A DNA stretch of 64,000 nucleotides, taken from positions 64,001 through 128,000 of IMG/VR virus record IMGVR_UViG_3300035703_000021. One strand, written 5' to 3'. Origin of the DNA: a virus. Both the position numbers and the translations under genes were made by a program. The notes under the pieces were generated by a model. It had not been told where the DNA came from. It saw only the letters and a program-made list of their open reading frames with translations, and searched no databases. Of the stretch, positions 8,100 through 42,401 are shown in pieces (position 1 is the stretch's first letter; the number at the start of each line of letters is the position of its first letter).

Positions 8100-8161
8100 A
8101 GATTGTCAGGATGTGAAAACACTTCTACATGTCCCATAAGCATGAGTCAGAGTGACCCGAA

Positions 8162-8195: not shown

Positions 8196-8220
8196 CGCAC
8201 CTACACTAGACGTAAATCTC

Positions 8221-27072: not shown

Positions 27073-27457
27073 AAGTGGTCAACGGGGTGTGCAGAGTGTA
27101 CGAGAGTAGAGCGTCAAGGGAGTTGACGGCGGAGCTATCGTGCCAGACGTAGAGTTTATCACCCTCCTTAAGAGTGATCTTGTTCCCGCTGATAATATCA
27201 TAGGAGATATTAGGAGGAAGATTAAGACCGTTGAGGATGTAAGCGGTGGTGGAACCGTTGGTTACTTTTGCGAAAACACCGATATTAGAGGCCGTTTTAT
27301 TGCAGACCAGAAGTGAAGTCACCAGAGCGAATCGCTTCTGGTAGTCGTATTGCACACCGGCTGTAACAGGCACATCGATCATAAGCCCGGCGGTAGCTCC
27401 CTCAACGTTTGTAGGGGAGGCTAGTTTGTTTGTGGAAACGTTAGAGGGGAGAAACAT
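27062..27457 (-). CDS. Small beta-sandwich fibre adaptor protein (family member 1)
   Basis: Likely start ATG 27457 (MFLPSN), 7 nt after the upstream stop; ALVTSLLVCN..LNLPPNISYDII.GNKITLKEGDKLYV. Confidence 0.65.
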   Translation of the reverse strand: MFLPSNVSTNKLASPTNVEGATAGLMIDVPVTAGVQYDYQKRFALVTSLLVCNKTASNIGVFAKVTNGSTTAYILNGLNLPPNISYDIISGNKITLKEGDKLYVWHDSSAVNSLDALLSYTLHTPLTTYDI

Positions 27458-27464
27458 AGCTCGA

Positions 27465-27773
27465 TTAGCTCCAAAGGATAGAGTTAATAAATTGTGAGGC
27501 GTGAAGGCCAATAATGTCAGCCCGGCGAATTACCGAGTAGGCTGTGATGGGTTCGGATTCGACCTCCACAGCGTTACGCCCGAGAACGAGAGGTACCTCG
27601 GTGCCAAATCCGTCCTGGATACGCCCCTGGTTTCTAAGAGTTAGATTACCCGTGCGCCGAGCAGGAATGAAGGAGATAGCTACACCATCAGTATCCGGCG
27701 AACCGGTTACGTTAGTGAGAATAACGTTGTTAAACGTTTTTGATATTTCAAAATCTTTGATGTTGAGCGCCAT
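27465..27773 (-). CDS. Small virion protein ending in a hydrophobic tail (INSILWS)
   Basis: 102 aa; DFEISKTFNNVILTN; preceded by the late motif. Confidence 0.55.
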   Translation of the reverse strand: MALNIKDFEISKTFNNVILTNVTGSPDTDGVAISFIPARRTGNLTLRNQGRIQDGFGTEVPLVLGRNAVEVESEPITAYSVIRRADIIGLHASQFINSILWS

Positions 27774-29084: not shown

Positions 29085-29789
29085 TTAGCGAGAAGCGTCG
29101 AAAGCGCAGTGGGACCTGATCCCGTCCGCTAGCACGTAGTGAAAGAACACCTGGTGATAGTACGTGGTGGTTGCTTTGTCTCCGAAGTCTCTGGGGTAGG
29201 GCATTGGATCCCTCCAGTGGGGTCTCTCGCACCCCTTATACACCATACCATCTCCAGGGGAGAGAATAACGGACCGATTCTCGCCACGCTTGGCGATAGC
29301 GGTCTTCTCCTCGTCCGTGTAGGTGTCGGGTGTTTTGATGTGAATCGGCCACGGATCCTCGACATTGGAGCCGATGTGCACCGTCACCGATATCTCGCAG
29401 GCGTCACGGTCAGCGTGGCGAGCCAGCGCCTGGCCGGGGAAGTAGAAACGATCGTAGTAGTAGGTGTTGTAGAGCTTGCGCCCTATCTCCTTCTCGAGTT
29501 TTAATCTGATCTCTGAGTGAATGGAGCGGTACTGCGGATGCCAGTAGCAGGCGTGAGATCCCTCCACTTGCGCCTCGACTTCCGTGTAAGTGTACTGATC
29601 GAGTTTCTTCCCCCAGTAGTTGACCTGGCCCCTTCTGTCGGGGACCGGGCGGTGAAGCTCCTGCGGATCGTATAGATCTTTCAGTACCAGGTAACCGTCG
29701 GCATCAAACTGAGGGTTTCGTGTCCAAGACGTCCCCGAGTTCTTTCTCTCCTGCTCGAAGAGTGCCTCCTCTGTCATGTGCTCTGCCAT
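29085..29789 (-). CDS. 2OG-Fe(II) oxygenase superfamily protein
   Basis: LYNTYYYDRFY..LARHADRDACEISVTVHI..GDGMVYKGCERPHWRDP..QVFFHYV; start ATG 29789 overlaps the upstream TGA. Confidence 0.8.
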   Translation of the reverse strand: MAEHMTEEALFEQERKNSGTSWTRNPQFDADGYLVLKDLYDPQELHRPVPDRRGQVNYWGKKLDQYTYTEVEAQVEGSHACYWHPQYRSIHSEIRLKLEKEIGRKLYNTYYYDRFYFPGQALARHADRDACEISVTVHIGSNVEDPWPIHIKTPDTYTDEEKTAIAKRGENRSVILSPGDGMVYKGCERPHWRDPMPYPRDFGDKATTTYYHQVFFHYVLADGIRSHCAFDASR

Positions 29790-30409
29790 CACTTCCACCT
29801 CGGTCCGACTACCCAACCGACAAGGCTCTTACGTGTCCCTTTTGTGACTTTGACAACGCGATGCTGAGTTCGGGAATCGAAGACTACAACTGTTCCGCGC
29901 TTTCTGGGAGCGAAGTAGGACTTTCCGTCCTCGGCGAGGAGCTGGAGATTCCCGCCCTCGTAGTCATCGGGGTCAGAGAGCTGGATGACGAAGGAGAGCT
30001 TCCTCACCAACTCCAGTTTCTCGTTGAGGTAGTCCTGCGTTCTGCCCTCGTGGTGGTTACCGACGCTTACGGGCTTGTAGTGCCCCGAGATACCGGCGTC
30101 ATTATGCCAGCCGTAGAACTCACCGACATCGTACTGGGTAAATTGCATGGCCTCCCCATCGATGTTCCGTATGTCGTAGAGGAAGTTCTCGCGATTAGCC
30201 CTCTCGATGTAGTGCCACGCGAACCCGGCGGTCCAGTGAGTTGTCGGGACCCAGGCGTTCTTCGAGTTTCTCTTGTCGCGATTCAGAGCGTCTCCCATAA
30301 GCTTGGAGTCGCCCATCTGGTCTTGGAAATTCTCCGTGAGGCTTTTTTCGATGCTTTCTACAACTTCTTTTGGTATGTCACTAAAATACCAAGTTGACTG
30401 ATATGCCAT
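29789..30409 (-). CDS. 2OG-Fe(II) oxygenase, prolyl-4-hydroxylase/PKHD-like
   Basis: QFTQY..FYGWHND..RKLSFVIQLSDPDDYEGG..FDSRTQHRVVKVTKGTRKSLVGW (HxD..H..RxS). Confidence 0.9.
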   Translation of the reverse strand: MAYQSTWYFSDIPKEVVESIEKSLTENFQDQMGDSKLMGDALNRDKRNSKNAWVPTTHWTAGFAWHYIERANRENFLYDIRNIDGEAMQFTQYDVGEFYGWHNDAGISGHYKPVSVGNHHEGRTQDYLNEKLELVRKLSFVIQLSDPDDYEGGNLQLLAEDGKSYFAPRKRGTVVVFDSRTQHRVVKVTKGTRKSLVGWVVGPRWK

Positions 30410-30451: not shown

Positions 30452-30850
30452 TTACTGCGCTGGGGTGGTCATAATCACCCACTCCTGGGAGTCCTCGTTC
30501 CACTCGTAGTAGTTTCCGGCGATCCTCTGCTCCTCAGTGAGCTCGGGCTGTGGGGTAGGTGGATCCCACTCGAAAGTCTCGGTATTTAGTACCCACGAAG
30601 AATAGGGTCGGGGGAATAGAAACACGTCGTGCTCCACGTTATAGACCATTCCTATCCCGGCGTAGCGATACCTGAAATTGTTGTTATACGACGTCTGGAT
30701 CCACATCGTCGCGGGGCCATGTACAGATCTAAGGTACTGCACTCCGAGCTCCTCGTTTTCGTCCCCGTTCTCGTCGAGGATATCCTCGTTTCTCACAACC
30801 GAGACACGCATAACAGTGTTGTCGTAGTCGATCTGCGCAAAGTGTGCCAT
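30452..30850 (-). CDS. Conserved 'MAHFA' protein, usual partner of glycine-rich fibre-tip proteins
   Basis: MAHFAQID..VSVV..WIQTSYNNNFRYRYAGIG..DVFLFPRPYSSW..YEWNEDSQEW; GGAGG RBS. Confidence 0.7.
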   Translation of the reverse strand: MAHFAQIDYDNTVMRVSVVRNEDILDENGDENEELGVQYLRSVHGPATMWIQTSYNNNFRYRYAGIGMVYNVEHDVFLFPRPYSSWVLNTETFEWDPPTPQPELTEEQRIAGNYYEWNEDSQEWVIMTTPAQ

Positions 30851-30865
30851 ATAAATTTTACCTCC

Positions 30866-32719
30866 TTATTCTGGGTATTGGATAATGACAATTCCTGGCC
30901 CACCGGTCCCTCCAAATAGCCCCGGAGCACCGCATCCACCTCCTCCTCCGGTGTTTGCCTGTGCCTGAGTGGGACTCAACGGTCTACCAGCACCACCACC
31001 TCCAGCCAATGGTGCAGGGCCTGCGGGCCAACCACCTCCACCACCAGCAAAATATCTTTGCCCAGCTACAGGCCCGGGCGTTCCGTACGCGGGCGGAGAT
31101 ATAACCGAGTACCATCCAGTACCTCCTACTAATGGACCACCGGGGCTTCCGCCAGCACCTCCGCCTGCGCCTCCGCTAACAGCTGCCGGGAATCCCACTG
31201 GTCCACCATTATTGCCTTGAGTGCCCAAGCTATCCGGCGAAGTCGGTGTTGCAGAACCGTTGCCACTACCGCCGGGAATGGCAGGCTTAGCGCCTCCGCC
31301 GCCTGAACCACCAGATCCGCCGGTGACTACAGTAGCAGTAGGACCTGCATTGGCCCCTCCACCACCACCGTAAGCGATAATTTGCGTAGGGCCTGGGGCA
31401 CCGATAGTTGTTGGAGTGCCCGCAGCAGCCGTTCCTCCGGCAGTTCCACCAGGATTTCCTCCGGAGCCTATAGAAATTGGATAAGGCCCGGCGCCCACGG
31501 GCATCTGCTCTCCAACTCGGACGGAGTACCCGGGGTTCCAAGGATGTGAATTGGTCGGTACGGCAGTGGTGGTATCAGAAGCTTGAATAGAAGTCACAAA
31601 TCCACCGCCGCCACCACCACCACCAATTCCAGGTCCTACTCCTCCTCCTCCTGCTCCACCTCCTCCCACGGCGAGGTAATCAATCCACTGAAGGGTCGGG
31701 TCCGTAATCGTGAAAGTTCCTGGCGCGGTGAAGATGTGCCTCCAGACTCCGGGATGGTTGGGGTCTGTGCTTGGTTCAATGATTCCTCCCGTCGCTCTCT
31801 GGTAGGGCGCCACTTTTTTATATCTTATACAGACAATCCCTGAGCCGCCAGTAAACCCAGTGTTTGATCCACCGTATCCGCTGTTAGCCGGTGACGTTCT
31901 AGATGCAGGTGCTGGAGTCGGGAATCCCCATCCACCAGCAGAGTAACCACCGGAAGAGACCAACGGATTCCATCCGGGTAGAACGCCTGGGGAAATCGCT
32001 TTGCTGACGATGCTTGCCGGGAAGTTGGGATCGATTCTTCCGGGCCCTCCCGCACCTCCCAGGCCAATTACACCGACCGTGCCAGCTCCACCAGCACCAC
32101 CACCACCACCACCGGCATACGAGGAGGTTGGTACGAAGGCCGCTCCAGAAGCTCCATCGTATCCCTGCCTAGGTATTGTTGGGACCGGCCAGTTACCAAG
32201 GCCCCCTCCAAATGCTCCACCACCACCTCCTCCACTACCACCGCCGGTAGCTCCTATACCAGGTTGTGTTCCTCCTCTACCCCCGCCTGTTGCAGTTATA
32301 GAGAAAGCCGAGGAAGGGCTTCCAGAAACTCCCGAACCACCTCCTCCTCCGACAACTATCGGATAGGATCCTGGAGAGTTTGATACCACTATGTTCCCGA
32401 ATAAAAACCCCCCTCCACCTCCTCCACCTCCGGAGGAAGTGTTATATCTGCCTCCACCCCCGGCAGCGATCATGTAATCGACGCTATCAATCGCAGCCGG
32501 AGGCCTGTTGACTAGAAAAGTCCCGTCGCCGGTAAATATATGATAGATATACCCGTCGTTCCCATCGACAATAGTACCCCCGGTGGCGTAATTGCCCAGA
32601 CCGGGAGCGTTCTCCGAGGTGTAGAATTCCCGGCTCTTTCCGCTGGCATTGTACCTGGTGGCGGGGGATCCTGGCGCCCAGTTCTTTGAGCCCGGAGAGT
32701 TTACGCTCTTTCCTGCCAT
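30866..32719 (-). CDS. Glycine/proline-rich receptor-binding-like protein with two tandem glycine-rich domains
   Basis: Two copies of ATGG.I..HIFT..GTF..DY..V/AxGGGG...GGxGIV.IxY; very high Gly and Pro content. Confidence 0.75.
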   Translation of the reverse strand: MAGKSVNSPGSKNWAPGSPATRYNASGKSREFYTSENAPGLGNYATGGTIVDGNDGYIYHIFTGDGTFLVNRPPAAIDSVDYMIAAGGGGRYNTSSGGGGGGGGFLFGNIVVSNSPGSYPIVVGGGGGSGVSGSPSSAFSITATGGGRGGTQPGIGATGGGSGGGGGGAFGGGLGNWPVPTIPRQGYDGASGAAFVPTSSYAGGGGGGAGGAGTVGVIGLGGAGGPGRIDPNFPASIVSKAISPGVLPGWNPLVSSGGYSAGGWGFPTPAPASRTSPANSGYGGSNTGFTGGSGIVCIRYKKVAPYQRATGGIIEPSTDPNHPGVWRHIFTAPGTFTITDPTLQWIDYLAVGGGGAGGGGVGPGIGGGGGGGGFVTSIQASDTTTAVPTNSHPWNPGYSVRVGEQMPVGAGPYPISIGSGGNPGGTAGGTAAAGTPTTIGAPGPTQIIAYGGGGGANAGPTATVVTGGSGGSGGGGAKPAIPGGSGNGSATPTSPDSLGTQGNNGGPVGFPAAVSGGAGGGAGGSPGGPLVGGTGWYSVISPPAYGTPGPVAGQRYFAGGGGGWPAGPAPLAGGGGAGRPLSPTQAQANTGGGGGCGAPGLFGGTGGPGIVIIQYPE

Positions 32720-32724
32720 GTCTC

Positions 32725-33096
32725 TTACGCCTCCTTGTCCCCGAGTACCAGGACTGTTAGGTCGTCGGCGGTGTCACCGGACCCCGCGTTGTTCTTGACA
32801 AATATAGCGTCGTTCGTGGCGGATATCACTATGGGAAATGGCAGTTCGAAGAAGTAGGTGTCCAGTGGCTGGAGGGAGAGCTTCGCGACTCTATTGGATG
32901 CGGTGACCGTGCCGAGGGACCCAGCGCTATTCTGGACGACGTGTATATCCACCACGACCGAGTTCACCGTGGCCTGCGAGTGAACAAGGATGCCGCGAAT
33001 GTACGACTTTGTATTACTAGCGACTGAGTACACGGCAGTGGTGGTATTATTCTCCACCACTACTGGGAAACCCAGTCCAACTTTCTGTAGTGCCAT
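32725..33096 (-). CDS. Small beta-sandwich fibre adaptor protein (family member 2)
   Basis: TAVYSVASNTKSYIRGILVH..LSLQPLDTYFFE..IVISATNDAIFV. Confidence 0.65.
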   Translation of the reverse strand: MALQKVGLGFPVVVENNTTTAVYSVASNTKSYIRGILVHSQATVNSVVVDIHVVQNSAGSLGTVTASNRVAKLSLQPLDTYFFELPFPIVISATNDAIFVKNNAGSGDTADDLTVLVLGDKEA

Positions 33097-33132
33097 AGTT
33101 TAAGTCTGGTCGTGTGTCAATACTTTTTATAC

Positions 33133-33140
33133 CCTTAAAC
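33133..33140 (-). promoter_or_regulatory. Late-type element GTTTAAGG
   Basis: 44 nt upstream of ATG 33096. Confidence 0.6.
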
Positions 33141-33144
33141 CCAT

Positions 33145-36100
33145 TTAGCCGAATAGCATCACTTCGATAGCGTCGACTCCGCCGCCGCCGCCAGCCGCTG
33201 CCCAGGACAACACTCCGGATCCGTTTGTGACTAGCGCTTGGCCGTTAGTCCCGTCCGCGCTAGGCAGAGTCCACACCGTATTAGCCGTTAGAGACGTTGG
33301 AGCTTTGAACCCGACGTAATTCGTTCCGTTATTAACATCCTCAAGAATCCTGATCTCTCCGGAGTTTGTTATTCTGAGCCTCTCCCCCGCGCCTCCGTAG
33401 CCGGTGACTATGAAATCATTTGAGGAGATGGTGAAGTTGTTGTTTGGCGCGCCCGCAACCTGCATCAGCATACCTGATCCGCCAGGACCAAGGCTGAAGT
33501 TCCCGCTGTTTAAGTACAGTGAGTTGGTGCTCTTCACCCATATAGATTCAGTGTACGTCCATCCGCCTGTTACCTCGAGCCTCCCGGACGGACTTGTGGT
33601 ACCAATGCCAACATTTTGAGAAGTATCGATCCTTAATGCTTCTGTGGATAAAGTTCCAAGAACTAGAGGCGATCCGCCATTAGTATAAATAACTCCAATC
33701 GCGGTATTTTGAAATGCAAGAGTTCCTGCATCGGCATAGGGAATAGAACCGAAGAGAGTTCCAGCAGTACTAGTTCCGTACTTTAGAATTCCGGTACCCT
33801 TATACGATGGTGTTGAAAAATAATCCTGGTCTGCCGCCCAAACCGATGATGGGCTAGTATTTCCAACATTTCTTGCCTGAATTATCGCGCCGCCGTAGTT
33901 TACATCTAAACCAGAATTCGCAGTTCCACTGAATGGGTTAGTAGTGCCAACGCCAACATTGCCGCTAAAAAAGCCATTTCTTACGTCAATATCCCCTACC
34001 GTCCCGGAGTACACCTCACCGGACTGACTGGACTGCGGGATGAACGTAAATCTCCCAGTGGACTGATCAAGACCAAAGAAGCCACTCTTAGACTTTACGG
34101 TGGTCCCCAGCGTTGTCGTGTACGTTCCGGCCGTCACGGTCGAAGTGACCACAAAGGTGAACGTTGTTCCCGTAGGCACCGACGCAATAGCCCACGTACC
34201 GTTGAGCTTGGTCTGCTCCGTTCCTGTCGCTCCGGAGATAGTGATGATATCTCCGACGGCGTAACCCGACGTAGAGGCCACCGTGCCAGTCACAGTTGTC
34301 GTTCCGTTGCCGATGTAGTTTGTTATTGTGAGCGCGGTGCCATTCCACTTGAACTCCACGCCCCTGTCCTTGGTCACCTCGGCGACGGAGGTATCGCCTC
34401 CGAGGGTGATGATAGGATCATCGATTGTCAGAGTCGTGGAATTAACCGTGGTTGTAGTGCCGTTGACGGTCAGGTTTCCGGTAATGGATACGTTGTTTCT
34501 GATCGTCGTGGTCCCTGACGTGGCCCCTAGAGTTAGGGCGGTAGAGGCCCCAAAAGCATTAATTGTGGTAGCTGTGGTGTTAAATACGTTAAACGAGGCG
34601 CTGCCAGTAGTAACAGAGGTGGTAAAAGACGGGGATGTGCCGAATACTAGCACTCCGGATCCCGTCTCATCGGAGATAACGCCAGCGAGTTGCGCTGACG
34701 TTGTCGCCGCGAATTGCGCGAGGGTTCCACTTGTCAGTCCCAGGCCCGTTGTGGGGTGTACGTGGTCCTGGCGGGAGTAGCGTAGGCTCGTTCCAACAGC
34801 CGCGGTCCCTAGAGCCAGAGGGTTGGTAGCGCTGGCCTGCCCCACGACAAACTCCGTGGTGGCGATCTGAGTCGTGTTGGTGTCCACCGCCGCTGTGGTG
34901 GAGATAGGAGTCCCTGTCAGAGTGGGTGACGCCGACATCACGACATTGCCGCTTCCCGTGATGGCGTTACTGACTAGGTTGTCGTTAGCGTCAGTGAATA
35001 CGGCCTGGGAGGCGGTAAGCCCTGTAATACGAACCGATCCACCAAAGAGCGAGACACCCGTATTAACGTAAAGCGAGTAGGCATTCGTGAGAGTGACGTT
35101 GGTACCGGCGGTCGGAGCTCCGTCGATGTAAACAGTGGAGGCGTTAGTGTACGTAACCGAGGTATTAGTCGCCGCGATGGAGGGATTATCGAAGGCTACA
35201 ATAGCGCCGTGGGTGGCGGTGCCCGACGCCGCTGTTGTTGAGTCGGTGTAGGTACCCGTTCCGGTGTACAGTTTGGCGGGAGCGGTTACTGTGAGCGCTG
35301 AGCCACTCGCCGCTTGGCTACCAAACGTACTCAGCCCATTGGAGGCAACGCTAACACGCTGTACACCGTTAGTATTAACAGCTACCTCATTAGCCCCAGT
35401 CGCAGTTAGGTTAAGAGCCCCCGAGGTGGCGGTCAGTGTCACGGCTCCCGTGCCGGTAATGTTCCCCACGGACGTTAGCGATCCGGTGACGTTTGCCGAG
35501 CCGTTGAAGTTCTGGCCCCACAGAGTCCGGGTCGTGGAGAGAGTAGCAGCGCTGCCGTCAATGCTCGTGATGCCGGTCAGTGCTAAGGAACCGCTGGCTC
35601 TGTTGATCGCCACCGCTGTGGTGCCGATGTGCATCGTCTGGTTATTAACGGCCAGAGTACCCGATGTGGGTAGAGTTACGTCCGTCAGCCCTGTCGTTGT
35701 GAGAGTCAGGCCAAAATTACCGCTCGTTGTGAAGCTATTCGCCAGGCTTATATTCCCGCTCAACGTGATGCTTCTATTTGCGTCGTTTACATCTACGCTG
35801 AGAGTTCTAGAAGCGGTCAGATCGTCGGAGTTCGTTATCTCCAGGTAGTGAGAGGTGTTAGCGTCGTCTTTGAGATATATATTGCCAAAGTAACCGGATT
35901 GCTCCGAAGAGGTACTTGCCGACAGAAAGTCGCCACTAGTCCCAGATCCTGAGATCCTGCTCACCCAGGATAAGGTGCCATTGCCGTCAGTACCTAGAAC
36001 CTGATCGGGATCCCCGTCGTTTGGAGGCAGGATTAGAGTTACGTCAGCCGCCAGACTCGATGGGGCCTTTATAGCGATGTAGTTAGTACCGTTGGCGGAA

Positions 36101-36330
36101 GCTTCGTAGTATCTTGTTGCCGACTGATTCTGTAGCGAGATATCGCTGGTGAACGTTGTCGTGGAGGAAGACGCTCCGATCTCCACGATCGAGATCGTTC
36201 CACCGGCGTCCTTCTTCGTAAAAAGCCGGCCGTCGTAGGTATTAACAGCGAGCTCCCCAAGCTGCAGGTCCCCAACCGCTGGGACCTTTCCCTGCACAGC
36301 GGACCTCTTGATTTTGAACGTATTTGCCAT
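33145..36330 (-). CDS. Long tail fibre protein
   Basis: 1061 aa Thr/Gly/Ser-rich; MANTFKIKRS..GELAVNTYDG N-domain, GNLTVNGTTTTVNS, GNVGIGT repeats, two copies of NGTNY..KAP..L..LP..DG...L.T.G.G.LSW. Confidence 0.85.
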   Translation of the reverse strand: MANTFKIKRSAVQGKVPAVGDLQLGELAVNTYDGRLFTKKDAGGTISIVEIGASSSTTTFTSDISLQNQSATRYYEASANGTNYIAIKAPSSLAADVTLILPPNDGDPDQVLGTDGNGTLSWVSRISGSGTSGDFLSASTSSEQSGYFGNIYLKDDANTSHYLEITNSDDLTASRTLSVDVNDANRSITLSGNISLANSFTTSGNFGLTLTTTGLTDVTLPTSGTLAVNNQTMHIGTTAVAINRASGSLALTGITSIDGSAATLSTTRTLWGQNFNGSANVTGSLTSVGNITGTGAVTLTATSGALNLTATGANEVAVNTNGVQRVSVASNGLSTFGSQAASGSALTVTAPAKLYTGTGTYTDSTTAASGTATHGAIVAFDNPSIAATNTSVTYTNASTVYIDGAPTAGTNVTLTNAYSLYVNTGVSLFGGSVRITGLTASQAVFTDANDNLVSNAITGSGNVVMSASPTLTGTPISTTAAVDTNTTQIATTEFVVGQASATNPLALGTAAVGTSLRYSRQDHVHPTTGLGLTSGTLAQFAATTSAQLAGVISDETGSGVLVFGTSPSFTTSVTTGSASFNVFNTTATTINAFGASTALTLGATSGTTTIRNNVSITGNLTVNGTTTTVNSTTLTIDDPIITLGGDTSVAEVTKDRGVEFKWNGTALTITNYIGNGTTTVTGTVASTSGYAVGDIITISGATGTEQTKLNGTWAIASVPTGTTFTFVVTSTVTAGTYTTTLGTTVKSKSGFFGLDQSTGRFTFIPQSSQSGEVYSGTVGDIDVRNGFFSGNVGVGTTNPFSGTANSGLDVNYGGAIIQARNVGNTSPSSVWAADQDYFSTPSYKGTGILKYGTSTAGTLFGSIPYADAGTLAFQNTAIGVIYTNGGSPLVLGTLSTEALRIDTSQNVGIGTTSPSGRLEVTGGWTYTESIWVKSTNSLYLNSGNFSLGPGGSGMLMQVAGAPNNNFTISSNDFIVTGYGGAGERLRITNSGEIRILEDVNNGTNYVGFKAPTSLTANTVWTLPSADGTNGQALVTNGSGVLSWAAAGGGGGVDAIEVMLFG

Positions 36331-36365
36331 CTGGCGCCCTAGTAGATGCTATTTAGCAGGAGATT

Positions 36366-36383
36366 GACCCTTATATAAGGGTC
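36366..36383. repeat. Perfect 18-bp palindrome in the leader of the long fibre gene
   Basis: GACCCTTATATAAGGGTC equals its own reverse complement. Confidence 0.85.
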
Positions 36384-36394
36384 TCATGTACCTA

Positions 36395-36402
36395 CTTTAA
36401 AC
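36395..36402 (-). promoter_or_regulatory. Late-type element GTTTAAAG
   Basis: 72 nt upstream of ATG 36330. Confidence 0.55.
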
Positions 36403-36424
36403 TGAACGCCTCCGCTCAATAGGG

Positions 36425-37999
36425 TCAGAATGTTCCGCCGTCAAAGGTGATATTATCGATGGTGCCGCCAGTGATGTTAACGTTGCTGGCGTCCTGAGTT
36501 GAAATCGTTCCCAGTCCCAGTGTAGTTCTACCAGCAGCCGCGTCGGCGTCGTCGATCAGAGAGCGGCCGAATGCGGTGAGAGTCGTAAGTGAAGCGGCGC
36601 TAGCACCGGTGTAGTAAGCCAGTCTGTCAGCAGCCGGAGTTAGACCACCAACGGTCGATAGTGCGGCCGTCAGAGCGATCGTGGGATTACCAGCGACACC
36701 ATCGCCATTAGTTACAGAGCCGCCATTACCGCTGAAAGTAATCGTCCGGGCCGCTACTGTGCCCGCTCCAGTACGAGTGATAAGTCCATTAGTGGCCAGG
36801 TTGTGAAGCGCCAGCGCTTGGCCTGTTAGAGAGACGTCGTCGGCGTTCGAAGCGATACCTGTACCAGCTCCGACGTTTAGAGTGTTGCCGGATTTAGTAA
36901 GACCACTTCCTGCGGTGATCTGACCTGCTCCGGAGAATTGGGCAAAGGCCAGAGAACTGGGGCTTGTTGCTCCGCCGATCGTGATGGGATTATTGGTAGT
37001 CAGTACCCAGCCGGAGTCAGCGTTGGTAGTACCCTCTTCCACGAAGGTGAATGCACCCGCTGTTACTTCAGCGTCTGAGTCGAAATCCGTAGCTCTATCC
37101 CAGACACCGTTTGCGCCGGTGCCCAAAGTCGTTACCACCCAGATACCGTTCTGGACATCCGTGGCCCCGGACTGATCCTTGAGCAGGATTCTGTCGCCGG
37201 CTGCCAGGTTCACTCCGTCCAGGACGTTAGGAGCGGCAGTGATCTGGCCTCTGGCGGATGTTCCTCCAGTTGCGTTGTATGTAACGGTTATGTTCCCAGC
37301 AGACGCCACTCGAACCGACTGCTTAACGTCAAGCCCGGATCTAGCCGCGTCAACGTAAGCCTTATTTGCCGCGTCGGTATCTGCTGTTGGAGTAGCCAGG
37401 TTTGTGATCTTCTGGCTGTTCAGCGACACCGCGGCGGTGGGGGCCGCCATCTGATCCAGACGACTTGTTCTTACCTGCGTATCGAAGTCACTAATCTTAG
37501 CGGCTGTGAGGGTCGGGATATCGCTCGCGGCCAGGGTGGTGCCCGATGTAACCAGGCCTTTGCTATTGATCGTTACCTTGGTGAACGTACCGGCGGTCGC
37601 AACGTCACTCTTAAGAGTTACCGTGATCGCGGTCGTACCCGAACCGGTGGCGTCACCGCTCAGGGTGATCGTCTGGTTCCCAGTCAAGTAATTCTGGTTC
37701 TTTACGAAGGCGGTCGAAGCTGCCTTTGTGCTGTTATCCGAAGTCGCCTGGGTGGGAACGACAATGTCACCCGAAAAAGTCTTGTTACCGGATATGGTCT
37801 GGGCGGTGCTTAGAGTCGCGAACGCTCCGGGACCTCCGATAGTCAGTATGGATCCAGCAGTGCCTCCAGCACCTCCAGTACCTTTACCATAGTAAAGTAC
37901 GTCATCTACTTCGTTAAAGGCCAATTCCGCATTGGCCAGTGAGCTAGGCGCGCCAGTAGCCCCGGAGGTTCTGCGTTTAATTCTGATGGTATTGGCCAT
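36425..37999 (-). CDS. Tail fibre protein
   Basis: MANTIRIKRR..ELAFNE; KVTINSKGLVTSG; DAANKAYVD..GLDVKQSVRVAS..GDRILLKDQ..QNGIW..FVEEG; ends ITFDGGTF. Confidence 0.85.
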   Translation of the reverse strand: MANTIRIKRRTSGATGAPSSLANAELAFNEVDDVLYYGKGTGGAGGTAGSILTIGGPGAFATLSTAQTISGNKTFSGDIVVPTQATSDNSTKAASTAFVKNQNYLTGNQTITLSGDATGSGTTAITVTLKSDVATAGTFTKVTINSKGLVTSGTTLAASDIPTLTAAKISDFDTQVRTSRLDQMAAPTAAVSLNSQKITNLATPTADTDAANKAYVDAARSGLDVKQSVRVASAGNITVTYNATGGTSARGQITAAPNVLDGVNLAAGDRILLKDQSGATDVQNGIWVVTTLGTGANGVWDRATDFDSDAEVTAGAFTFVEEGTTNADSGWVLTTNNPITIGGATSPSSLAFAQFSGAGQITAGSGLTKSGNTLNVGAGTGIASNADDVSLTGQALALHNLATNGLITRTGAGTVAARTITFSGNGGSVTNGDGVAGNPTIALTAALSTVGGLTPAADRLAYYTGASAASLTTLTAFGRSLIDDADAAAGRTTLGLGTISTQDASNVNITGGTIDNITFDGGTF

Positions 38000-38043
38000 T
38001 TACTTAGTAATTGGGGGTGAAATGGATCTTCGAATCTTCAAAT

Positions 38044-38051
38044 CTTTCAAC
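38044..38051 (-). promoter_or_regulatory. Late-type element GTTGAAAG
   Basis: 52 nt upstream of ATG 37999. Confidence 0.55.
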
Positions 38052-38054
38052 TAC

Positions 38055-38360
38055 TCAGAAATTGCCACCATCCGTGATAGTGATCACAGTGTTTACATCA
38101 TTTATAACGTACTTGTTCTGCGTCTGATTAAATACCACAACGCTCTTATCCACTCTAGCGCTGTCGTCCACATTGGCCAGGCTTCCAAAATCCGGTTTGT
38201 TGCCCACATGCCAGACTTCGTTTGAATTGACCTTTAGAGACTCAGCGTTAATATCACCTTTGACCTCGACATCACCCACGACCTCGGCGACTTGGGTGTC
38301 ATTGGTATACCCGGGAATACCAACATTAAGGTTTTTAACTCTTCCAGATAAGTAGTCCAT
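38055..38360 (-). CDS. Small fibre connector protein
   Basis: MDYLSGRVKNLNVGIPGYT...LANVD..VVVFN..ITDGGNF. Confidence 0.65.
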   Translation of the reverse strand: MDYLSGRVKNLNVGIPGYTNDTQVAEVVGDVEVKGDINAESLKVNSNEVWHVGNKPDFGSLANVDDSARVDKSVVVFNQTQNKYVINDVNTVITITDGGNF

Positions 38361-38376
38361 CTACTGCGTCCTCACA

Positions 38377-38709
38377 TTAATCCAGGGTCTCCAGGATGGA
38401 GACGATGAACTTTAGATTCGACCCGTTACTGCCGGATAGGTACAGTTTGTCACCCGACTGCAGCACCAGCTTCCCGGCCAGTAGATTAACGGTATCTTTG
38501 AACGGTACCGGGAAGGTCTTGCAGATCTCCGTATTCACTGCACCTCTATTATGCACCAGAGTCACATCGTATGATACGCTGGAGCTGATATTTGTTACCT
38601 GGGCGAGTAGTATCACAGCTACGTACCCTACGGGAGCGGTGTAGACCAGAGTTGACGAGGTAGAAACTACCTGGGTGATCGTCTTAAACGAGTTAGTTTT
38701 TAATGCCAT
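38377..38709 (-). CDS. Small beta-sandwich fibre adaptor protein (family member 3)
   Basis: NSFKT..LVYTAPVGYVAVILLAQVTNI..GKLVLQSGDKLYL..SILET. Confidence 0.7.
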   Translation of the reverse strand: MALKTNSFKTITQVVSTSSTLVYTAPVGYVAVILLAQVTNISSSVSYDVTLVHNRGAVNTEICKTFPVPFKDTVNLLAGKLVLQSGDKLYLSGSNGSNLKFIVSILETLD

Positions 38710-38713
38710 CGGT

Positions 38714-40594
38714 TTACGCTCCTAACGCGAGGATGAATGGTGTTACTGCGGAGAACAGACTTCTGGAGTACGCGCTTCCGGAGATAAGTCCCAGGGCCTG
38801 GTCGATAACCACACCGTCTCCTATCCTGAAGTTACCGGAGTGGTCCGTGCTGGTGTATATCACGCTTCCACCGTTTCCCATAGTAATCTCGTTCTCCTGA
38901 ATCGGCTGCCCACCGTTTCTCGGTAGAGCGGTGTCTATATTCGTTCCCGATCCGACGTACTCGAAGGAATGACTGGAGGCCAGCAGCCTGGTCTGCTTGT
39001 GCAGGTATACGGTGTCGGATACGGAGAGGGCAAACGGAATCTCGTCTCTAAGGGTGATAACGTAATTACCCTCAGAAACCTCTCTGGATTCTCCGACTAG
39101 GAAGTAGGTCGGTGACACCTGCGCAGTGGCTTGCGCTCCGGTACCCGTCGCTGGAGGGTCTATAGTGACGGATGGCGGGGATGATGAGTAACCCCTGCCT
39201 GAGGAGATAATCTCCACCGCGGTGACCGTTCCGTCCGAGATTTCAGCGATGGCCGTCGCGGTAATCCCCCAAGACTGCGAGGGAGAGCCCACTGTGACGC
39301 TTGGGGCTGAGGTATACCCGCTGCCTCCATTGTCGATGATTATTCTCTCGACCTGATAGTAGACGTTGTTGATGTAGATCGCCTGGCCATCGAACGGCCT
39401 TGTGCTTTTGACTTTGACTTTACCTCCGGACTGGTAGGTATGGTCGATACTAGACGTACCCACCTGCACGATGAACTGCGTGGCGGAGACGGTAGAGCTC
39501 ACTCTGAACACGTGTCCGTACTGACCGGATGGGAAGATCTGCGAGGAAACCGAGCCTCCTGACGAGCAGCTGAAAGTGAGATTACGAAGCTCCGCATCCA
39601 TCCCAGCCTGTAATCCATGGGCGGTGGAAGTCGTAACAGTTAGCAGTCCTGTGTTCTTATTGTAAACCGCGGCGGTTACGTCCTTCTCCACGGGTGCAAT
39701 ATTAACAGTCACTGTATTACTGCCCTCGGGCTCAGCGCTCGTAACACTTCCGGTGTACTTTAAAGCACTAACACCGTCCGCCACGAGACCGTAGTTCCCC
39801 ATGGAGGAGTTGGAGTTTGTCAGATCGCAGCCTCCGCCACTCAGGCATTCCACAGCCTTATCGCAGCAGATCGTGAACATCGATACCAGCTGAGCGTATC
39901 CCTCATTGAGAATCTGAGCCCCGATTCCTCCCTGATTGTACTGAGTGTAGGAGTCGACAACCATGCTCTTTAGCTGGCCAAGGCAGTGAGCTCCGTCAAC
40001 TCTGAGTCCCGTGGAATTCTTGATAAAGTTGGTGCAGTTCTGGATGTACGGGGACTGATCTATGTATGGGGGGTCAAAAGGATTGAACGCGAATATCGCC
40101 CCGGGATTGGGGACCGAGGCCACGAACGACATATTCGATATGTAAGAGCCATTGCTTACGTAGAATAAGTCGGCCTCATTCTGAGGAGATACGCTAACCT
40201 CTCTCAGCGAGTCACCGATTATGCTCACCTGCTCGGGTACGCTTAGCGGGTTATTCTCCGAGTAACTACCGGCTGATACTTTTATCAGAGTACCAGGTGT
40301 GGCTATGGCCAAGGCTGATTTGATAGTGGCTTTAGCATTCTGCAGGCTAACGCCGGAATTGGAGTCATTTCCGTCCTTGGTGACAAAAAGAACGTTTGTT
40401 ACAGCGGCGTACTTCCACCTCGTTCCGACTCCGGTTGATGATAGGAACTGCCCTGGATTACCAAAGTTATTTAACCCGTCTCTCAGCCCCTCCGGGACTG
40501 AGATATTCCCCTCTTCGTCAAGTATATCTCTGAGATTATCACCAGCGCCGGTGGATAGTCCATGGGGCACATTAAATTTCTTTATATTTGCCAT
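38714..40594 (-). CDS. Cyanophage-type beta-helix virion/fibre protein
   Basis: LFVTKDGNDSNSG..TIKSAL..AGSYSENNP; QSPYIQNCTNF..SMVVDSYTQYNQGG..GYAQLVS; GSGYTSAP repeats; HSFEYVGSG..TSTDHSGNFRIG; ends FILALGA. Confidence 0.75.
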   Translation of the reverse strand: MANIKKFNVPHGLSTGAGDNLRDILDEEGNISVPEGLRDGLNNFGNPGQFLSSTGVGTRWKYAAVTNVLFVTKDGNDSNSGVSLQNAKATIKSALAIATPGTLIKVSAGSYSENNPLSVPEQVSIIGDSLREVSVSPQNEADLFYVSNGSYISNMSFVASVPNPGAIFAFNPFDPPYIDQSPYIQNCTNFIKNSTGLRVDGAHCLGQLKSMVVDSYTQYNQGGIGAQILNEGYAQLVSMFTICCDKAVECLSGGGCDLTNSNSSMGNYGLVADGVSALKYTGSVTSAEPEGSNTVTVNIAPVEKDVTAAVYNKNTGLLTVTTSTAHGLQAGMDAELRNLTFSCSSGGSVSSQIFPSGQYGHVFRVSSTVSATQFIVQVGTSSIDHTYQSGGKVKVKSTRPFDGQAIYINNVYYQVERIIIDNGGSGYTSAPSVTVGSPSQSWGITATAIAEISDGTVTAVEIISSGRGYSSSPPSVTIDPPATGTGAQATAQVSPTYFLVGESREVSEGNYVITLRDEIPFALSVSDTVYLHKQTRLLASSHSFEYVGSGTNIDTALPRNGGQPIQENEITMGNGGSVIYTSTDHSGNFRIGDGVVIDQALGLISGSAYSRSLFSAVTPFILALGA

Positions 40595-40630
40595 GGAGAT
40601 CGGTAGCTAACTTGGTTCCTCGATATGAAC

Positions 40631-40638
40631 CTTTAAAC
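40631..40638 (-). promoter_or_regulatory. Late-type element GTTTAAAG
   Basis: 44 nt upstream of ATG 40594; overlaps the upstream stop codon. Confidence 0.6.
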
Positions 40639-41550
40639 CAAGAGAGACGTCCTGAGAACCTTGATTTTCAAGGGAAATGAGATGGAAGAGTCTTTTTCAA
40701 AAGTCAGAACGACTTCCTGTGATACGTTATTTATAGTCAGATCAAGCTCTCCCAAGTACTGACTCGCGGTGTCTAGCACTCCGTACTCAGTCAGAAAAGC
40801 ACCGGTGCCGTCGTGAATAGCTAGAACCTCTCTTACTTGGTAAGTCTTAGGAGATGGTTTGTTCACCTCGATCTGAACGGTATACTTAGCGGAGCGGTAG
40901 CTCAACGGGAAGCTTTCGATAGCGACTGGGACGAAAGACGCTGCTGATATCTCGGTTGTTTTGATGGATATCTGGGATACCGACGCCGAATTACCATCAG
41001 TCTTAAATACGTAGGATCCGCTTAGCTCAACGCTTGTCGCAAAGTTGTTTCCGGCATTTATGAACAGTTTATTTCCACTCGCTGTGGATTGCCCGGCTAA
41101 CGCTACTTTATTATTTATCTTTAGATTAATGCCTTCCGTGTGGATAAAATTGTCCCCATCAGCCCAGTCCCTAAACTGATCTAGACTTTGATCTTTGGAA
41201 GCGGAAGTTTGGGAGGATATCTCCAGCCACTCAGATGAATCACCGTCCCAGACTTTGAATGAGTAATTACTTTCGCCCAGCGAGGTGTCTATCCAGCACT
41301 CGCCGTCCGACAGTACTGAGTAGTACCCGGACTCGGAGGCATCATTGTTTGGTGGAAGAGGCCCGTAGTGTATCGGTCCTATCTTCCTGATTCTTCGCGT
41401 ACCGTCGCTGGAGATGTCTTTGAAGTACAGTCCGGGATCGCCAGCGTTGTAGTTGAGGGCTAATTCACCGTTGTCTATGTCAAGTAGCTCGGGACGCTTT
41501 GAAAGCTCCTGTGACCTGCGGAGGTAGATTCTGTCTCTAAGTTCTGCCAT
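40633..41550 (-). CDS. Fibre/baseplate connector protein
   Basis: IYLRRS..KRP..GELALNY..DPGLYFKD N-domain; GECWIDT; C-terminal YRSAKYTVQI..HDGT..TEYG domain. Confidence 0.7.
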   Translation of the reverse strand: MAELRDRIYLRRSQELSKRPELLDIDNGELALNYNAGDPGLYFKDISSDGTRRIRKIGPIHYGPLPPNNDASESGYYSVLSDGECWIDTSLGESNYSFKVWDGDSSEWLEISSQTSASKDQSLDQFRDWADGDNFIHTEGINLKINNKVALAGQSTASGNKLFINAGNNFATSVELSGSYVFKTDGNSASVSQISIKTTEISAASFVPVAIESFPLSYRSAKYTVQIEVNKPSPKTYQVREVLAIHDGTGAFLTEYGVLDTASQYLGELDLTINNVSQEVVLTFEKDSSISFPLKIKVLRTSLLV

Positions 41551-41561
41551 GGTAGTGTTAG

Positions 41562-42401
41562 TTAGTAGACTAAAGCGTCGATTACGTAGTTCTCGTCATC
41601 TCCCTGGACGATATTGTCTATGACCTCAGTTATATAGTCCTCCATGTACTTCTTATTCACAGCGTCGAGTAGGTGAGTGGGATCAGCCACTCCACTGATA
41701 CGTCTGAGATTGACGTCAAGAGCGGGCCTCCAGCTCTCGATATTCTGCCCAATCACCATGTGGCCGTAGAATTCCACCCGGCCCGAGGTCCTCACTCTAC
41801 CAACCGAGTTGGACTGATTATCCACCCAGTGCTGGATAGTGGTGATGTCGGAGTCGGTGGAGGCGATGAGGGTGAGAGGCACGGCCTCGCTAGCGCCTGG
41901 TGAGATAGTATTATCAGCAGTGGTGATAGGTTGTTTGAGGATGAATCCGTCACCCACTTCCACAGCCGCGATAAGAGTATCTACCTCGCCCTTGGTGTAT
42001 GTCTGGGACCTATTATAGTAGTTTTGAGCAAGGTAGGAGAGGACACTGTCATATGAGTCCGAGACCTTCTCATTGACTTCAGATTCCGTGATAAACTGCA
42101 CGAGGGATGTACCAATCTCCGATTCCAGATCCGCGAGCCTAGCATCCACCTCGGCTTTAGTATACACCGAGGAGATATCAGCCTTGGTCCTGAGAAAGCG
42201 CTGGACCTCTGACTTGGTATAGAAATCCTGAAGGTTAGCTTCGCCTGTAGCCGAACGCGTCTTCGAGTAAACGTTGGGAGTTGATGAGAAGGACTGGGTC
42301 TGCGTGGGGTTAAGTGCCTCCTGGGATGTAGGAAGTACCCTACTAATACCATTATCACCGCAGGATGGGTTGCTTCCTCCTCCGCCGAATACTTTTGCCA
42401 T
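41562..42401 (-). CDS. Fibre shaft-like protein with YTKxEV repeats
   Basis: YTKSEV, YTKAEV, YTKGEV; ISGVADPT..DAVNKKYM; ends VIDALVY. Confidence 0.65.
   Translation of the reverse strand: MAKVFGGGGSNPSCGDNGISRVLPTSQEALNPTQTQSFSSTPNVYSKTRSATGEANLQDFYTKSEVQRFLRTKADISSVYTKAEVDARLADLESEIGTSLVQFITESEVNEKVSDSYDSVLSYLAQNYYNRSQTYTKGEVDTLIAAVEVGDGFILKQPITTADNTISPGASEAVPLTLIASTDSDITTIQHWVDNQSNSVGRVRTSGRVEFYGHMVIGQNIESWRPALDVNLRRISGVADPTHLLDAVNKKYMEDYITEVIDNIVQGDDENYVIDALVY

Follow-up and report, generated by a model that had tools for sequence, protein, structure and literature searches.

The locus and its ten genes

How could ten consecutive genes of one phage, each encoding a separate protein, give a single fibre of defined order? 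The question is raised by a locus in the window, which is the whole 64,000-nt stretch of DNA analysed here (positions 64,001 to 128,000 of IMG/VR record IMGVR_UViG_3300035703_000021). This DNA belongs to a 138.9-kb relative of cyanophage S-TIM5. A Mu-type portal is present, as in the S-TIM5-like cyanomyoviruses (genus Aurunvirus and relatives), and over 99% of its length it is 63.5-63.9% identical to the portals of S-TIM5/54/61/66. Behind the portal gene, the window and the S-TIM5-like loci have in common a series of genes for proteins of 142, 356 and 279 aa and a socket protein (see below). It was also observed that the ten fibre genes adjoin the portal gene, and that some homologues carry the annotation 'head decoration'.

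An earlier note on this DNA had read the ten genes as a chain of fibre proteins with plug-and-socket ends. The ten minus-strand open reading frames were all verified, with the coordinates, lengths and termini quoted for them. In transcription order they are:

41562..42401, minus strand: 279-aa first link, ends ...NYVIDALVY (last 7 residues at 41565-41585); homologue of S-TIM5 gp133
40633..41550, minus strand: 305-aa protein, starts ...LRRS...GELALN; socket at residues 4-61 (about 41368-41541); C-terminal domain ends ...KVLRTSLLV
38714..40594, minus strand: 626-aa protein with head MANIKKFNVPHGL, beta-helix-like middle and tail ...FILALGA
38377..38709, minus strand: 110-aa jellyroll 'adaptor', placed after the ...ALGA tail and before the 101-aa protein; S-TIM5 counterpart gp130
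38055..38360, minus strand: 101-aa plug protein; C-terminal plug domain at about residues 55-101, ends ...NTVITITDGGNF (...TDGGNF); residues 90-101 at 38058-38093
36425..37999, minus strand: 524-aa middle link; type-A socket at residues 1-60 (37820-37999), IKRR...AELAFN; plug ...NITFDGGTF (36428-36463)
33145..36330, minus strand: 1061-aa link; type-B socket at residues 1-56 (36163-36330), IKRS...GELAVN; hydrophobic tail ...AIEVMLFG
32725..33096, minus strand: 123-aa small protein in 'adaptor' position; PHROG 20100 (E 7e-15)
30866..32719, minus strand: 617-aa Gly-rich protein, presumed distal tip; Pfam Gly_rich_2 and PHROG 2295
30452..30850, minus strand: 132-aa MAHFA protein; PHROG 7759 (function unknown; E 9e-43)

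The 305-aa protein belongs to PHROG 356 (minor tail protein), the 626-aa protein matches Pfam DUF1565 (27.2 bits, cut-off 20.3) and the tail fibre family PHROG 17885 (E 7e-158), and the 524-aa protein matches PHROG fibre and decoration families. The presumed tip has strong matches to Gly_rich_2 (PF21722; 75.3 bits vs a cut-off of 24.3, E 9e-21) and PHROG 2295 (E 2e-50), and the MAHFA protein may, as a guess, be its partner or chaperone. In the S-TIM5 record gp133, gp132 and gp130 are annotated as virion structural proteins.

We consider it rather probable that the ten genes encode a virion fibre in which separate proteins, probably trimers, are linked one behind the other. At three of the joints the connector would consist of two parts, a C-terminal plug on the upstream protein and an N-terminal cap, the socket, on the downstream one. 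The plug would be a short beta-strand that terminates in [DN]-G-G-x-[FYW]-COOH, or at the first joint in [IV]D[AC]L[VE]Y, and the cap would take up about 55 residues counted from residue 1, with the pattern M-A-N-T-I-[RK]-I-K-R-[RS] ... P ... [GA]-E-L-A-x-N ... L-[YF]. The fibre would then be assembled in the order of its genes, with the 279-aa protein next to the virion and the Gly-rich protein at the tip, and the joints would allow segments to be swapped.

Plugs and sockets in the window

A socket profile, A1, was built from 12 socket N-termini. At E<1e-23 it finds exactly three genes in the whole 138.9-kb record, those of the 305-aa (E 6e-26), 524-aa (E 2e-24) and 1061-aa (E 2e-26) proteins. 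A D-x-x-x-[FYW] C-terminal end is present on 3 of the 56 window genes (crude gene calls), and these are exactly the genes upstream of the three sockets, with intergenic gaps of 11, 55 and 94 nt. Random placement of three plug ends before three sockets has a probability of about 3.6e-5. The D-x-x-x-(F/Y) end proposed in the earlier note thus describes the three joints of the window, but it does not hold as a general motif. The recurrent end is G[GAS]x[FYW], mostly [DN]GG[NT][FY], and the ...IDALVY of the first pair is a different ending, specific to the S-TIM5 lineage, where at all 8 unique junctions of the S-TIM5-like loci the socket behind [IV]D[AC]L[VET]Y-stop is of the RRS type.

A separate neck fibre had also been suggested, made from an unpaired plug (the gene at 63628, ending ISGGGW) and an unpaired socket (the gene at 7758). 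The socket and plug comparison gave it no support. The 7758 gene matches the socket profile with an E-value of 0.013 only, and a PhoH-like gene lies next downstream; plug-domain homology was absent from the 63628 gene (E 0.18).

Adjacency in other phages

The IMG/VR survey covered 160 loci fetched by homology, 10 further loci and the window, and gave 286 socket matches, 281 of them assessable (5 lay at locus edges), which reduce to 184 unique junctions. At 166 of these an ORF ending in G[GAS]x[FYW] was found within -30 to 130 nt upstream of the socket, and the remaining junctions had [IV]D[AC]L[VET]Y (8), a proline-rich ...FPPxFK (8) or other ends (2). The motif end occurs on just 32 of 4,668 ORFs that have no socket downstream. 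In the reverse direction a socket follows 160 of 192 unique motif-ending ORFs; divergent socket-like heads lie downstream of at least 6 of the 27 misses that were inspected, and several DGGTF ends precede small non-socket proteins. An independent collection of 39 bacterial genome or MAG contigs has the plug end before the socket at 47 of 53 unique junctions. The co-occurrence expected from the earlier note is therefore enriched far above chance and beyond the S-TIM5-like lineage. The survey loci were fetched via socket homology and many of the junctions share ancestry, so neither the adjacency counts nor the covariation described below are independent events.

The socket family has 11,760 representative clusters. 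In the best 150 of the 11,760 profile hits the socket match begins with the first residue for 145 proteins and at residue 3 or 9 for the other 5, and the bodies behind the socket, analysed with Pfam for 40 of these 150, carry Collar, Peptidase_S74, Phage_fiber_2, Collagen and Gly_rich_2 domains. Plug-socket adjacency was present in 23 of 30 clusters of such bodies. The same three-gene cassette was found in Ralstonia phage PY059YO380 and the cultured cyanophage S-CBS2, and also in prophage-like loci of Novosphingobium, Sphingobium and Limnohabitans isolates.

Conservation, pairing and exchange of segments

In 24 junctions with identical DGGNF and MANTIRIKRR peptides all degenerate positions show synonymous variation, which supports that the plug-socket junction is maintained as protein and not as DNA. 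The two sides also covary. GGN ends pair with KRR sockets and GGT ends with KRS sockets: among 164 junctions N occurs with R10 77 times and T with S10 61 times, and 4 are discordant. The penultimate residue of the plug thus goes with the type of socket, and the two DGG joints of the window phage would not be interchangeable.

Relatives swap whole segments at the joints, as expected if segments are exchanged as units. In the window the RRS-type socket is on the 305-aa protein and the ...TDGGNF plug on the 101-aa protein; two other loci (L010 and L011) have an RRS-type socket and a ...TITDGGNF plug domain on one protein of 254 or 208 aa. The 208-aa protein of L011, like proteins of L149 and L166, consists almost entirely of a socket and a plug. 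The counterpart of the 626-aa protein is just 73-81 aa in S-TIM5 and the loci L004 and L009, where only the head and the tail are retained.

Predicted complex of the 101-aa and 524-aa proteins

The trimer-trimer prediction proposed as a check was run for one joint, with three copies of the 101-aa protein, three copies of residues 1-110 of the 524-aa protein and custom alignments (A4 and A5). It passed against its controls. The score was 0.75 (runs 0.75, 0.76 and 0.75) and the three controls scored 0.53, 0.00 and 0.00; the best control was an unrelated 89-aa protein, which leaves a margin of +0.22, barely above the 0.20 mark. Of 157 solved complexes 116 attain that mark, and of 215 mismatched pairs 2 do so, figures calibrated on single-chain pairs with the tool's own alignments, unlike the present 3+3 job with custom alignments. 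The runs share at least 97% of their contacts, and the partner pLDDT is at least 90.

The model predicts that the C-terminus of the 101-aa protein binds the N-terminal socket of the 524-aa protein. The predicted interface is made by residues 90-101 of the former and residues 1-11, 18-19, 22, 24, 27 and 43-45 of the latter. In the model socket residues 4-10 pair as a parallel strand with plug residues 95-101, the terminal Phe packs on socket residues 8-10, 18 and 27, and socket residue 10, the covarying one, contacts plug residues 100-101. In the predicted 3:3 complex each plug chain contributes its last 9-12 residues, which lie as a parallel strand beside the opening strand of a socket chain.

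Putative adaptor joints and other endings

Two further joints would be built differently, with a separate jellyroll of about 110 aa placed between a hydrophobic C-terminal tail and the next head. The AlphaFold model of the 110-aa adaptor (pLDDT 91.3) has nine strands, and Foldseek matched it best to Ena1B (7a02_A, E 7e-5) and also to TNF-like and nucleoplasmin-like jellyrolls. Its neighbours are conserved. The earlier note had called both the 110-aa and the 123-aa protein an adaptor, but no relation of the 123-aa protein to the 110-aa family was detectable (BLASTP E 0.2; hhalign probability 0.2%). Viral clusters of 119-121 aa are on record for the 123-aa protein. In other phages an adaptor comes after the type-B socket proteins, whose ends are ...MEVI or ...VFGG, and relatives of the 305-aa protein end ...RT[AS][IL][LVM][VS]-stop before a MA[TN]x[KR]xF head. 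Judged from this conserved neighbourhood, both the adaptor joints and the joint from the 305-aa to the 626-aa protein are putative.

Alternative explanations

It is well known that diverse receptor-binding proteins can be attached to the virion by a conserved anchor domain at their N-terminus. Each cap might similarly dock its own fibre on a common site of the baseplate, neck or capsid, in which case DGGx[FY] is an ordinary closure of fibre domains and the adjacency an inherited operon order. The descent that relates many survey junctions, and the DGGTF ends without a socket downstream, would fit such an arrangement. It is nevertheless unlikely, as plug type covaries with socket type, the predicted interface joins exactly the conserved termini while two of three controls scored 0.00, and the adjacency extends over 23 body architectures and an independent bacterial collection. 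The existence of small proteins with little besides a socket and a plug (L011, L149/L166) also speaks against it. Phage fibres also often require small chaperones encoded nearby, and an upstream plug, notably on the proteins of about 100 aa, could nucleate cap trimerisation transiently and be absent from the virion. The tight spacing, with a one-base gene overlap at 44 of the 184 junctions, suggests coupled synthesis. We give this explanation little credence, too: the 524-aa protein has a socket, a plug and fibre-type domains, the S-TIM5 counterparts of the first plug/socket pair (gp133 and gp132) are annotated virion structural proteins, and so is S-CBS2 gp050, which ends ...SGGSF.

The gene ends could also be kept as stretches of DNA homology for the shuffling of modules, with no contact between the proteins, and mosaic exchange does take place at exactly these boundaries. 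The free variation of codons behind identical peptides, and gaps that range from -1 to 119 nt, make this very improbable. An end-to-end fibre is the explanation we prefer. It is conceivable, and we propose it tentatively, that the joints form a portable, orthogonal connector code, in which [DN]GGN[FY] fits only KRR caps and [DN]GGT[FY] only KRS caps, complemented by ...IDALVY, ...RTSLLV and the joints of tail and jellyroll adaptor, so that up to ten separately encoded proteins give a defined fibre that is reshuffled by gene exchange. If true, the code would rank among the most widespread assembly devices of tailed phages that have escaped description, considering the size of the socket family alone.

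No published description of the plug-socket joint was found in the literature, and it is apparently undescribed so far. If the joints are real, the assembly order and specificity of fibres would be readable from gene termini alone, and thousands of 'hypothetical' phage structural genes could be annotated. The joints would account, too, for the mosaic way in which receptor-binding modules of aquatic phages have evolved, and they name the exact natural exchange boundaries. The cultured carriers of the cassette (S-CBS2, S-TIM5-like phages and bacterial isolates) make the joint directly testable.

Comparison with known systems

The socket had been likened to the N-terminal domain of Mtd and of phage hyaluronidases, a likeness that persists as a weak structural match (Z 2.6-2.9) and is absent in sequence. 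In a fold search Foldseek gave E-values of 0.17-5 and VIA-align Z scores of 2.9 (6x3m_F), 2.7 (2c3f) and 2.6 (1yu0), with the N-termini in register; the Mtd and HylP scores are tied with those of unrelated small trimerisation domains, e.g. collagen XVIII. Pfam Mtd_N (PF18454) was found neither in the three window proteins (E<=0.01), nor in their first 80 residues (E<=10), nor in 40 of the 150 best relatives, hhalign of A1 against residues 1-60 of BPP-1 Mtd gave a probability of 0.2%, and PDB profile searches gave no sequence-level match of the socket to HylP. On the HylP1/HylP2 cap (2c3f, 2dp5, 6x3m), residues 1-66 of the socket model superpose on residues 5-63 of 6x3m_F with an rmsd of 3.6 A over 54 residues. 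The plug proteins of L149, L166 and L020 have heads that look HylP-like to us, and we know of no partner peptide for HylP.

According to the published account (PMC2408619), Mtd of Bordetella phage BPP-1 is a receptor-binding trimer that bears a small cap at its N-terminus and sits at the end of a fibre protein encoded directly upstream. Like the Mtd cap, the socket is the first domain of a fibre-like protein. The mtd gene directly follows the fibre gene bbp9, and Bbp9 ends ...ADLGGIA, which resembles the joints described here in its Gly-Gly-hydrophobic end and in having the partner of an N-terminal cap encoded upstream. Unlike the window phage, BPP-1 has GGIA and not GGx[FYW], and one joint instead of a series.

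The long tail fibre of T4 is also made from consecutive genes, gp34-gp35-gp36-gp37, with the segments joined in gene order. No gp34-gp37 family of Pfam or NCBIfam was found among the ten proteins, and the connector here differs in being repeated and portable, recurring within one phage and across thousands. In Klebsiella phages KP32/K11, CBA120, G7C and the BppU-BppL system of TP901-1, T4gp10-like or BppU domains are branching hubs. These phages are like the window in that conserved docking modules permit exchange of receptor-binding proteins, and the residues that follow the socket (QTISGNKTFSG) match the neck of TP901-1 BppL (E 7e-4); the Pfam matches of the ten proteins include neither the T4gp10-like branching domain nor the BppU family. 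The predicted joint itself can also be compared with Bacillus Ena and chaperone-usher pili, where a terminal strand of one subunit pairs with the sheet of the next. Those are homopolymers of one subunit, whereas here different trimeric proteins would join once each.

Gene block and its termini

The record comprises 138,862 bases of an IMG/VR virus, estimated to be 86% complete, of which the window is bases 64001-128000; no near-identical DNA to the window was found in the phage collection. The product of a Mu-type portal gene at 43986-45932 (Pfam Portal_Mu, E 8e-77) shares 63.5-63.9% identity, across 99% of the protein, with its counterparts in cyanophages S-TIM5, S-TIM54, S-TIM61 and S-TIM66. 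The ten putative fibre genes are on the minus strand downstream of this portal, after genes of 142 and 356 aa, and their order is that of S-TIM5 gp136 to gp130. All ten reading frames are present with the lengths and termini read in the earlier note. Directly downstream of the block are ORFs of 243 and 206 aa (29085-29816 and 29789-30409, minus strand), which by eye we take to be like 2OG-Fe(II) oxygenases.

Three of the fibre proteins begin with a basic N-terminal cap, the socket: RRS-type on the 305-aa protein, type A (K-R-R) on the 524-aa protein and type B (K-R-S) on the 1061-aa protein. A profile (A1) was built from twelve such N-termini of the window and its relatives, and in the whole 138.9-kb record it matched exactly these three genes at E<1e-23. 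D-x-x-x-[FYW] endings occur in 3 of 56 crudely called window genes, and these are the three direct upstream neighbours of the sockets (P ~3.6e-5 under random placement). With the plug-domain profile A4, the DGGTF-type end of the 524-aa protein went undetected, and the DGGNF- and DGGTF-type plugs thus share their last residues only.

The next-best A1 match in the record was partial (profile positions 14-44, E 5e-5), in a 187-aa gene outside the window (G000:C1:54443-55006, minus strand). This gene is the first of its strand block, it is followed by genes of 1686 and 329 aa, and there is no plug upstream of it.

The earlier note also set apart a lone plug (gene 63628, ...ISGGGW) and a lone socket (gene 7758) as a possible separate neck fibre. 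This was not supported: gene 7758 scores only E 0.013 as a socket, gene 63628 has no plug-domain homology, and the pair was rejected, gene 63628 following the head-tail adaptor and gene 7758 preceding the gene listed here.

8152-8964, plus strand: PhoH-like gene (PHROG 170, E 2e-69), directly after the 113-aa gene 7758

Plugs and sockets as neighbours

Two IMG/VR scans were made with the type-B and type-A socket sub-alignments (A2 and A3), giving at least 80 loci each; of their pattern matches, 174 of 621 and 569 of 603, respectively, were confirmed. A1 was then searched over all stop-to-stop frames of the loci from both scans, ten earlier loci and the window. This gave 286 socket matches at E<1e-3, 5 of them at locus edges, which left 281 assessable and 184 unique junctions among the loci listed. 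Of the same-strand ORFs with their end at -30 to +130 nt before the start of the socket, the longest was taken as the upstream partner. It ended in G[GAS]x[FYW] in 166 of the 184 junctions, compared with 32 of the 4,668 unique ORFs that are 60 aa or longer and have no socket downstream, so that the co-occurrence of a DGGxF-stop with a following KR..GE gene, as raised in the earlier note, is enriched. The D-x-x-x-[F/Y] terminus proposed there, taken as D-x-x-x-[FYW], fits 153 of the 184 junctions, fewer than the glycine motif. In the reverse direction, a socket follows 160 of the 192 ORFs that end in the motif, again among the loci listed. Inspection of 27 of the 32 exceptions revealed, downstream of the motif, divergent socket-like heads missed by the profile (6), a proline-rich protein that itself precedes a socket (3) and small non-socket proteins (7).

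The other junctions of the 184 were eight with [IV]D[AC]L[VET]Y (the S-TIM5 lineage), eight with a proline-rich ...FPPxFK end, one with ...FDCGSF and one without a clear partner. The two genes are tightly spaced, the socket starting no more than 19 residues from the preceding stop in 183 junctions and 32 residues after it in one; 44 junctions overlap by one base, and no fused plug-socket form was seen among the 184. When 139 socket proteins with a length of 200 aa or more were clustered by the part after residue 110, a plug was upstream of every member in 23 of the 30 clusters and of none in 7. An independent set of 39 bacterial genome or MAG contigs, mostly of Sphingomonadales, Caulobacterales and Burkholderiales, had the plug in 47 of 53 unique junctions, and most of the misses were longer spurious ORFs picked by the upstream-ORF rule in GC-rich DNA.

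The proline-rich protein, which is small and ends in ...FPPYFPPxFK instead of a DGG plug, precedes a type-B socket in eight unique junctions (L059, L068, L073, L080, L083, L088, L089, L107). In three contigs (L059, L083, L086) it follows a protein ending in ...LDGGTF, and it may be an extra intermediate link.

Such an adjacency could also arise if the DNA at the gene ends were conserved for recombination. Against this, the 24 junctions with exactly DGGNF-stop and MANTIRIKRR use several synonymous codons at every degenerate position. The two sides also vary together: in 164 scorable junctions, the residue before the terminal aromatic and socket residue 10 were N and R in 77, T and S in 61, and N-S or T-R in 4, counted as sequences and not as independent events. 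We are nearly certain that the adjacency of the DGG strand and the N-terminal cap is a real, protein-level and very widespread feature.

Distribution

Among 1.84 billion representative proteins, A1 matched 11,760 at E<=1e-3, of which 1,918 also passed E<=1e-10. In the best 150 of the 11,760 the socket started at residue 1 in 145 and at residue 3 or 9 in 5. Only 2 of these 150, which are mostly type-B, had a plug end of their own, and this rarity fits with type B being a distal element. The cassette of a small plug protein, a type-A socket protein ending in DGGTF and a type-B socket protein is also found in Ralstonia phage PY059YO380 and in the cultured cyanosiphovirus S-CBS2, where the plug-bearing gp050 is annotated as an unknown structural protein. 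Searches of cultured phages by tblastn gave no match for the 60-aa socket and 3 records for a 110-aa query.

In the Ralstonia phage (L174, 2606-3373 and 5445-6125), a 226-aa type-B socket protein and a 255-aa baseplate-adjacent fibre have a common C-terminal ending, ...RYVDLIMCTKN and ...RYIDLILCAKN, respectively. This may be one tip domain mounted in two ways.

Relatives and exchanged segments

Gene architecture was read in ten IMG/VR loci whose relation to the window is by way of the 279-aa protein. The [IV]D[AC]L[VET]Y-stop followed by the RRS...GELA.N head was kept in all ten and in S-TIM5, and one locus (L003) had the architecture of the window. In L004-L006, L009 and S-TIM5 the 626-aa protein corresponds to one of only 73-81 aa, made up of a head (MA.N.KF.V.HGL) and a tail (...IALAIALG) and nothing more. 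The beta-helix-like part (Pfam DUF1565) in the middle of the 626-aa protein is therefore an insert that separates two connector pieces. A single protein of 254 or 208 aa in L010 and L011 has an RRS-type socket at its start and a ...TITDGGNF plug domain at its end, and is followed by a type-A socket protein (...FDGGTF) and a type-B socket protein. By phmmer, residues 114-209 of the L011 protein match residues 6-101 of the 101-aa protein in the window (E 1.5e-39). It follows from these two forms that the stretch from the C-terminal domain of the 305-aa protein, through the 626- and 110-aa proteins, to the N-terminal part of the 101-aa protein is either there as a whole or missing as a whole, and from the architectures of the relatives that what follows a protein tracks its type of C-terminus.

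Some plug proteins are small, at 110-123 aa (L149:1304-1453, L166:822-971, L020:2298-2453 and their ORFs), and their N-termini, of the form RIQNRRGTASEW...GE.GFETD, resemble the heads of streptococcal HylP to our eye. Such proteins may be minimal links made of a socket and a plug.

Putative jellyroll adaptor joints

The 110-aa adaptor was modelled as a nine-strand jellyroll (pLDDT 91.3). Its best structural matches were Ena1B, a subunit of the endospore appendages of Bacillus (E 7e-5), and also nucleoplasmin-like cores, TNF-like trimers and a cement protein from a phage. The 133 close homologues, of 109-113 aa, are unnamed or "hypothetical" save for two with an implausible kinase label. In the neighbourhoods of 19 distinct family members listed in the collected loci, a hydrophobic tail recurs upstream (...ILALGA, ...AIALG, ...SLILG, ...YMEVI, ...AIVFGG, ...AAMIF) and heads of the form M.Y[LI]G... 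or MAG.... recur downstream; the upstream partner in other phages is often a short type-B socket protein. The window contains a third homologue of the adaptor, between two other genes:

27465-27773, minus strand: 102-aa protein that has a head and a tail of the same kind (MALNIKDFEI......SILWS), directly before the 149-aa adaptor homologue
27062-27511, minus strand: 149-aa protein homologous to the 110-aa adaptor (probability 91.6% by hhalign)
24602-26872: 756-aa tail-spike-like protein (PHROG 2234), next after the 149-aa adaptor homologue

The 123-aa protein after the 1061-aa gene has the same position, and was considered as a homologue of the 110-aa adaptor; no relation to the adaptor family was detected.

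Predicted structure of the proposed joint

For the complex prediction, the N-terminal part of the 524-aa protein (residues 1-110; socket alignment A5, 50 rows) and the whole 101-aa protein (A4, 24 rows) were each entered in three copies. The complex score was 0.75 (runs 0.75, 0.76 and 0.75) as compared to 0.53, 0.00 and 0.00 for the controls, and 116 of 157 solved complexes reach the mark for this score, as do 2 of 215 mismatched pairs, a calibration unlike the 3+3 design and custom alignments of this prediction. At least 97% of the contacts agree between runs, and the partner pLDDT is at least 90. The docking of plug into socket proposed in the earlier note scores above its best control for this pair, and the model supports binding of the 101-aa protein to the 524-aa head without showing it.

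The predicted interface involves socket residues 1-11, 18-19, 22, 24, 27 and 43-45 and plug residues 90-101. The lowest-error pairs of the model are in parallel register (socket 4-5 with plug 95-96, 6 with 96-99, 8 with 98-101 and 9-10 with 99-101), with Phe101 near socket residues 8-10, 18 and 27, and with residue 24 of the neighbouring socket chain touching plug residues 98-99. The plug strand would then pair in parallel with a socket strand in a coaxial trimer-on-trimer joint, and the basic K-R-R may hold the C-terminal carboxylate or the conserved Asp. It is likely, from these predictions, that the adjacency reflects a physical joint. A more tentative proposal, though a plausible one, is that all ten genes encode a single linear fibre in which the order of the genes is the order of assembly. 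The putative first joint, from the 279-aa to the 305-aa protein, has an ending that differs from the DGG plug.

Comparison with known systems

The earlier note likened the socket to the N-terminal domains of Mtd and phage hyaluronidases. The socket monomer model (pLDDT 83.7) gave weak structural matches only: by Foldseek, phiTE baseplate fibre chains (E 0.047), HylP 6x3m (E 0.17-1) and Mtd (E 1.4-5), and by VIA-align, Z 2.9 (6x3m_F residues 5-63), 2.7 (2c3f) and 2.6 (Mtd 1yu0 residues 5-49), tied with collagen XVIII trimerisation domains. The VIA-align matches to HylP and Mtd run from N-terminus to N-terminus. The likeness is weak at this structural level (Z 2.6-2.9) and was not seen in sequence: Pfam Mtd_N did not match the sockets, and profile comparison with BPP-1 Mtd gave no similarity, so that membership of Mtd_N is not shown and the resemblance is a lead. 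When the PDB was searched by sequence, with the 524- and 1061-aa proteins as well as A1 and A5, neither HylP nor Mtd came up; the sole matches were to a fibre motif (23sh_r, TP901-1 BppL) and, spuriously, to designed repeats. After the socket, residues ~54-93 of the 524-aa protein (gene at 36425-37999; ..GAF.TLS..QTISGNKTFSG..) match the neck of BppL of lactococcal phage TP901-1 (PDB 3d8m, 4hem; E 7e-4) and, weakly, Pfam BppL_N.

Serial fibres, such as T4 gp34-37, are of a known kind, and so are conserved docking modules for receptor-binding proteins. Literature searches by text and motif strings, covering papers apart from their supplements, found no description of a connector made of DGG plug and N-terminal cap. 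As far as the available parts of the two papers describe them, the "chain-like fibre" of A1002 (PMC13730344) and the phiTE baseplate (PMC11972413) are arrangements that differ from the DGG joint. The nearest functional precedent is phage BPP-1, in which mtd comes directly after the fibre gene bbp9, the product of which ends in ...ADLGGIA. In the available part of the source, Mtd of this phage is located at the ends of the tail fibres (PMC2408619).
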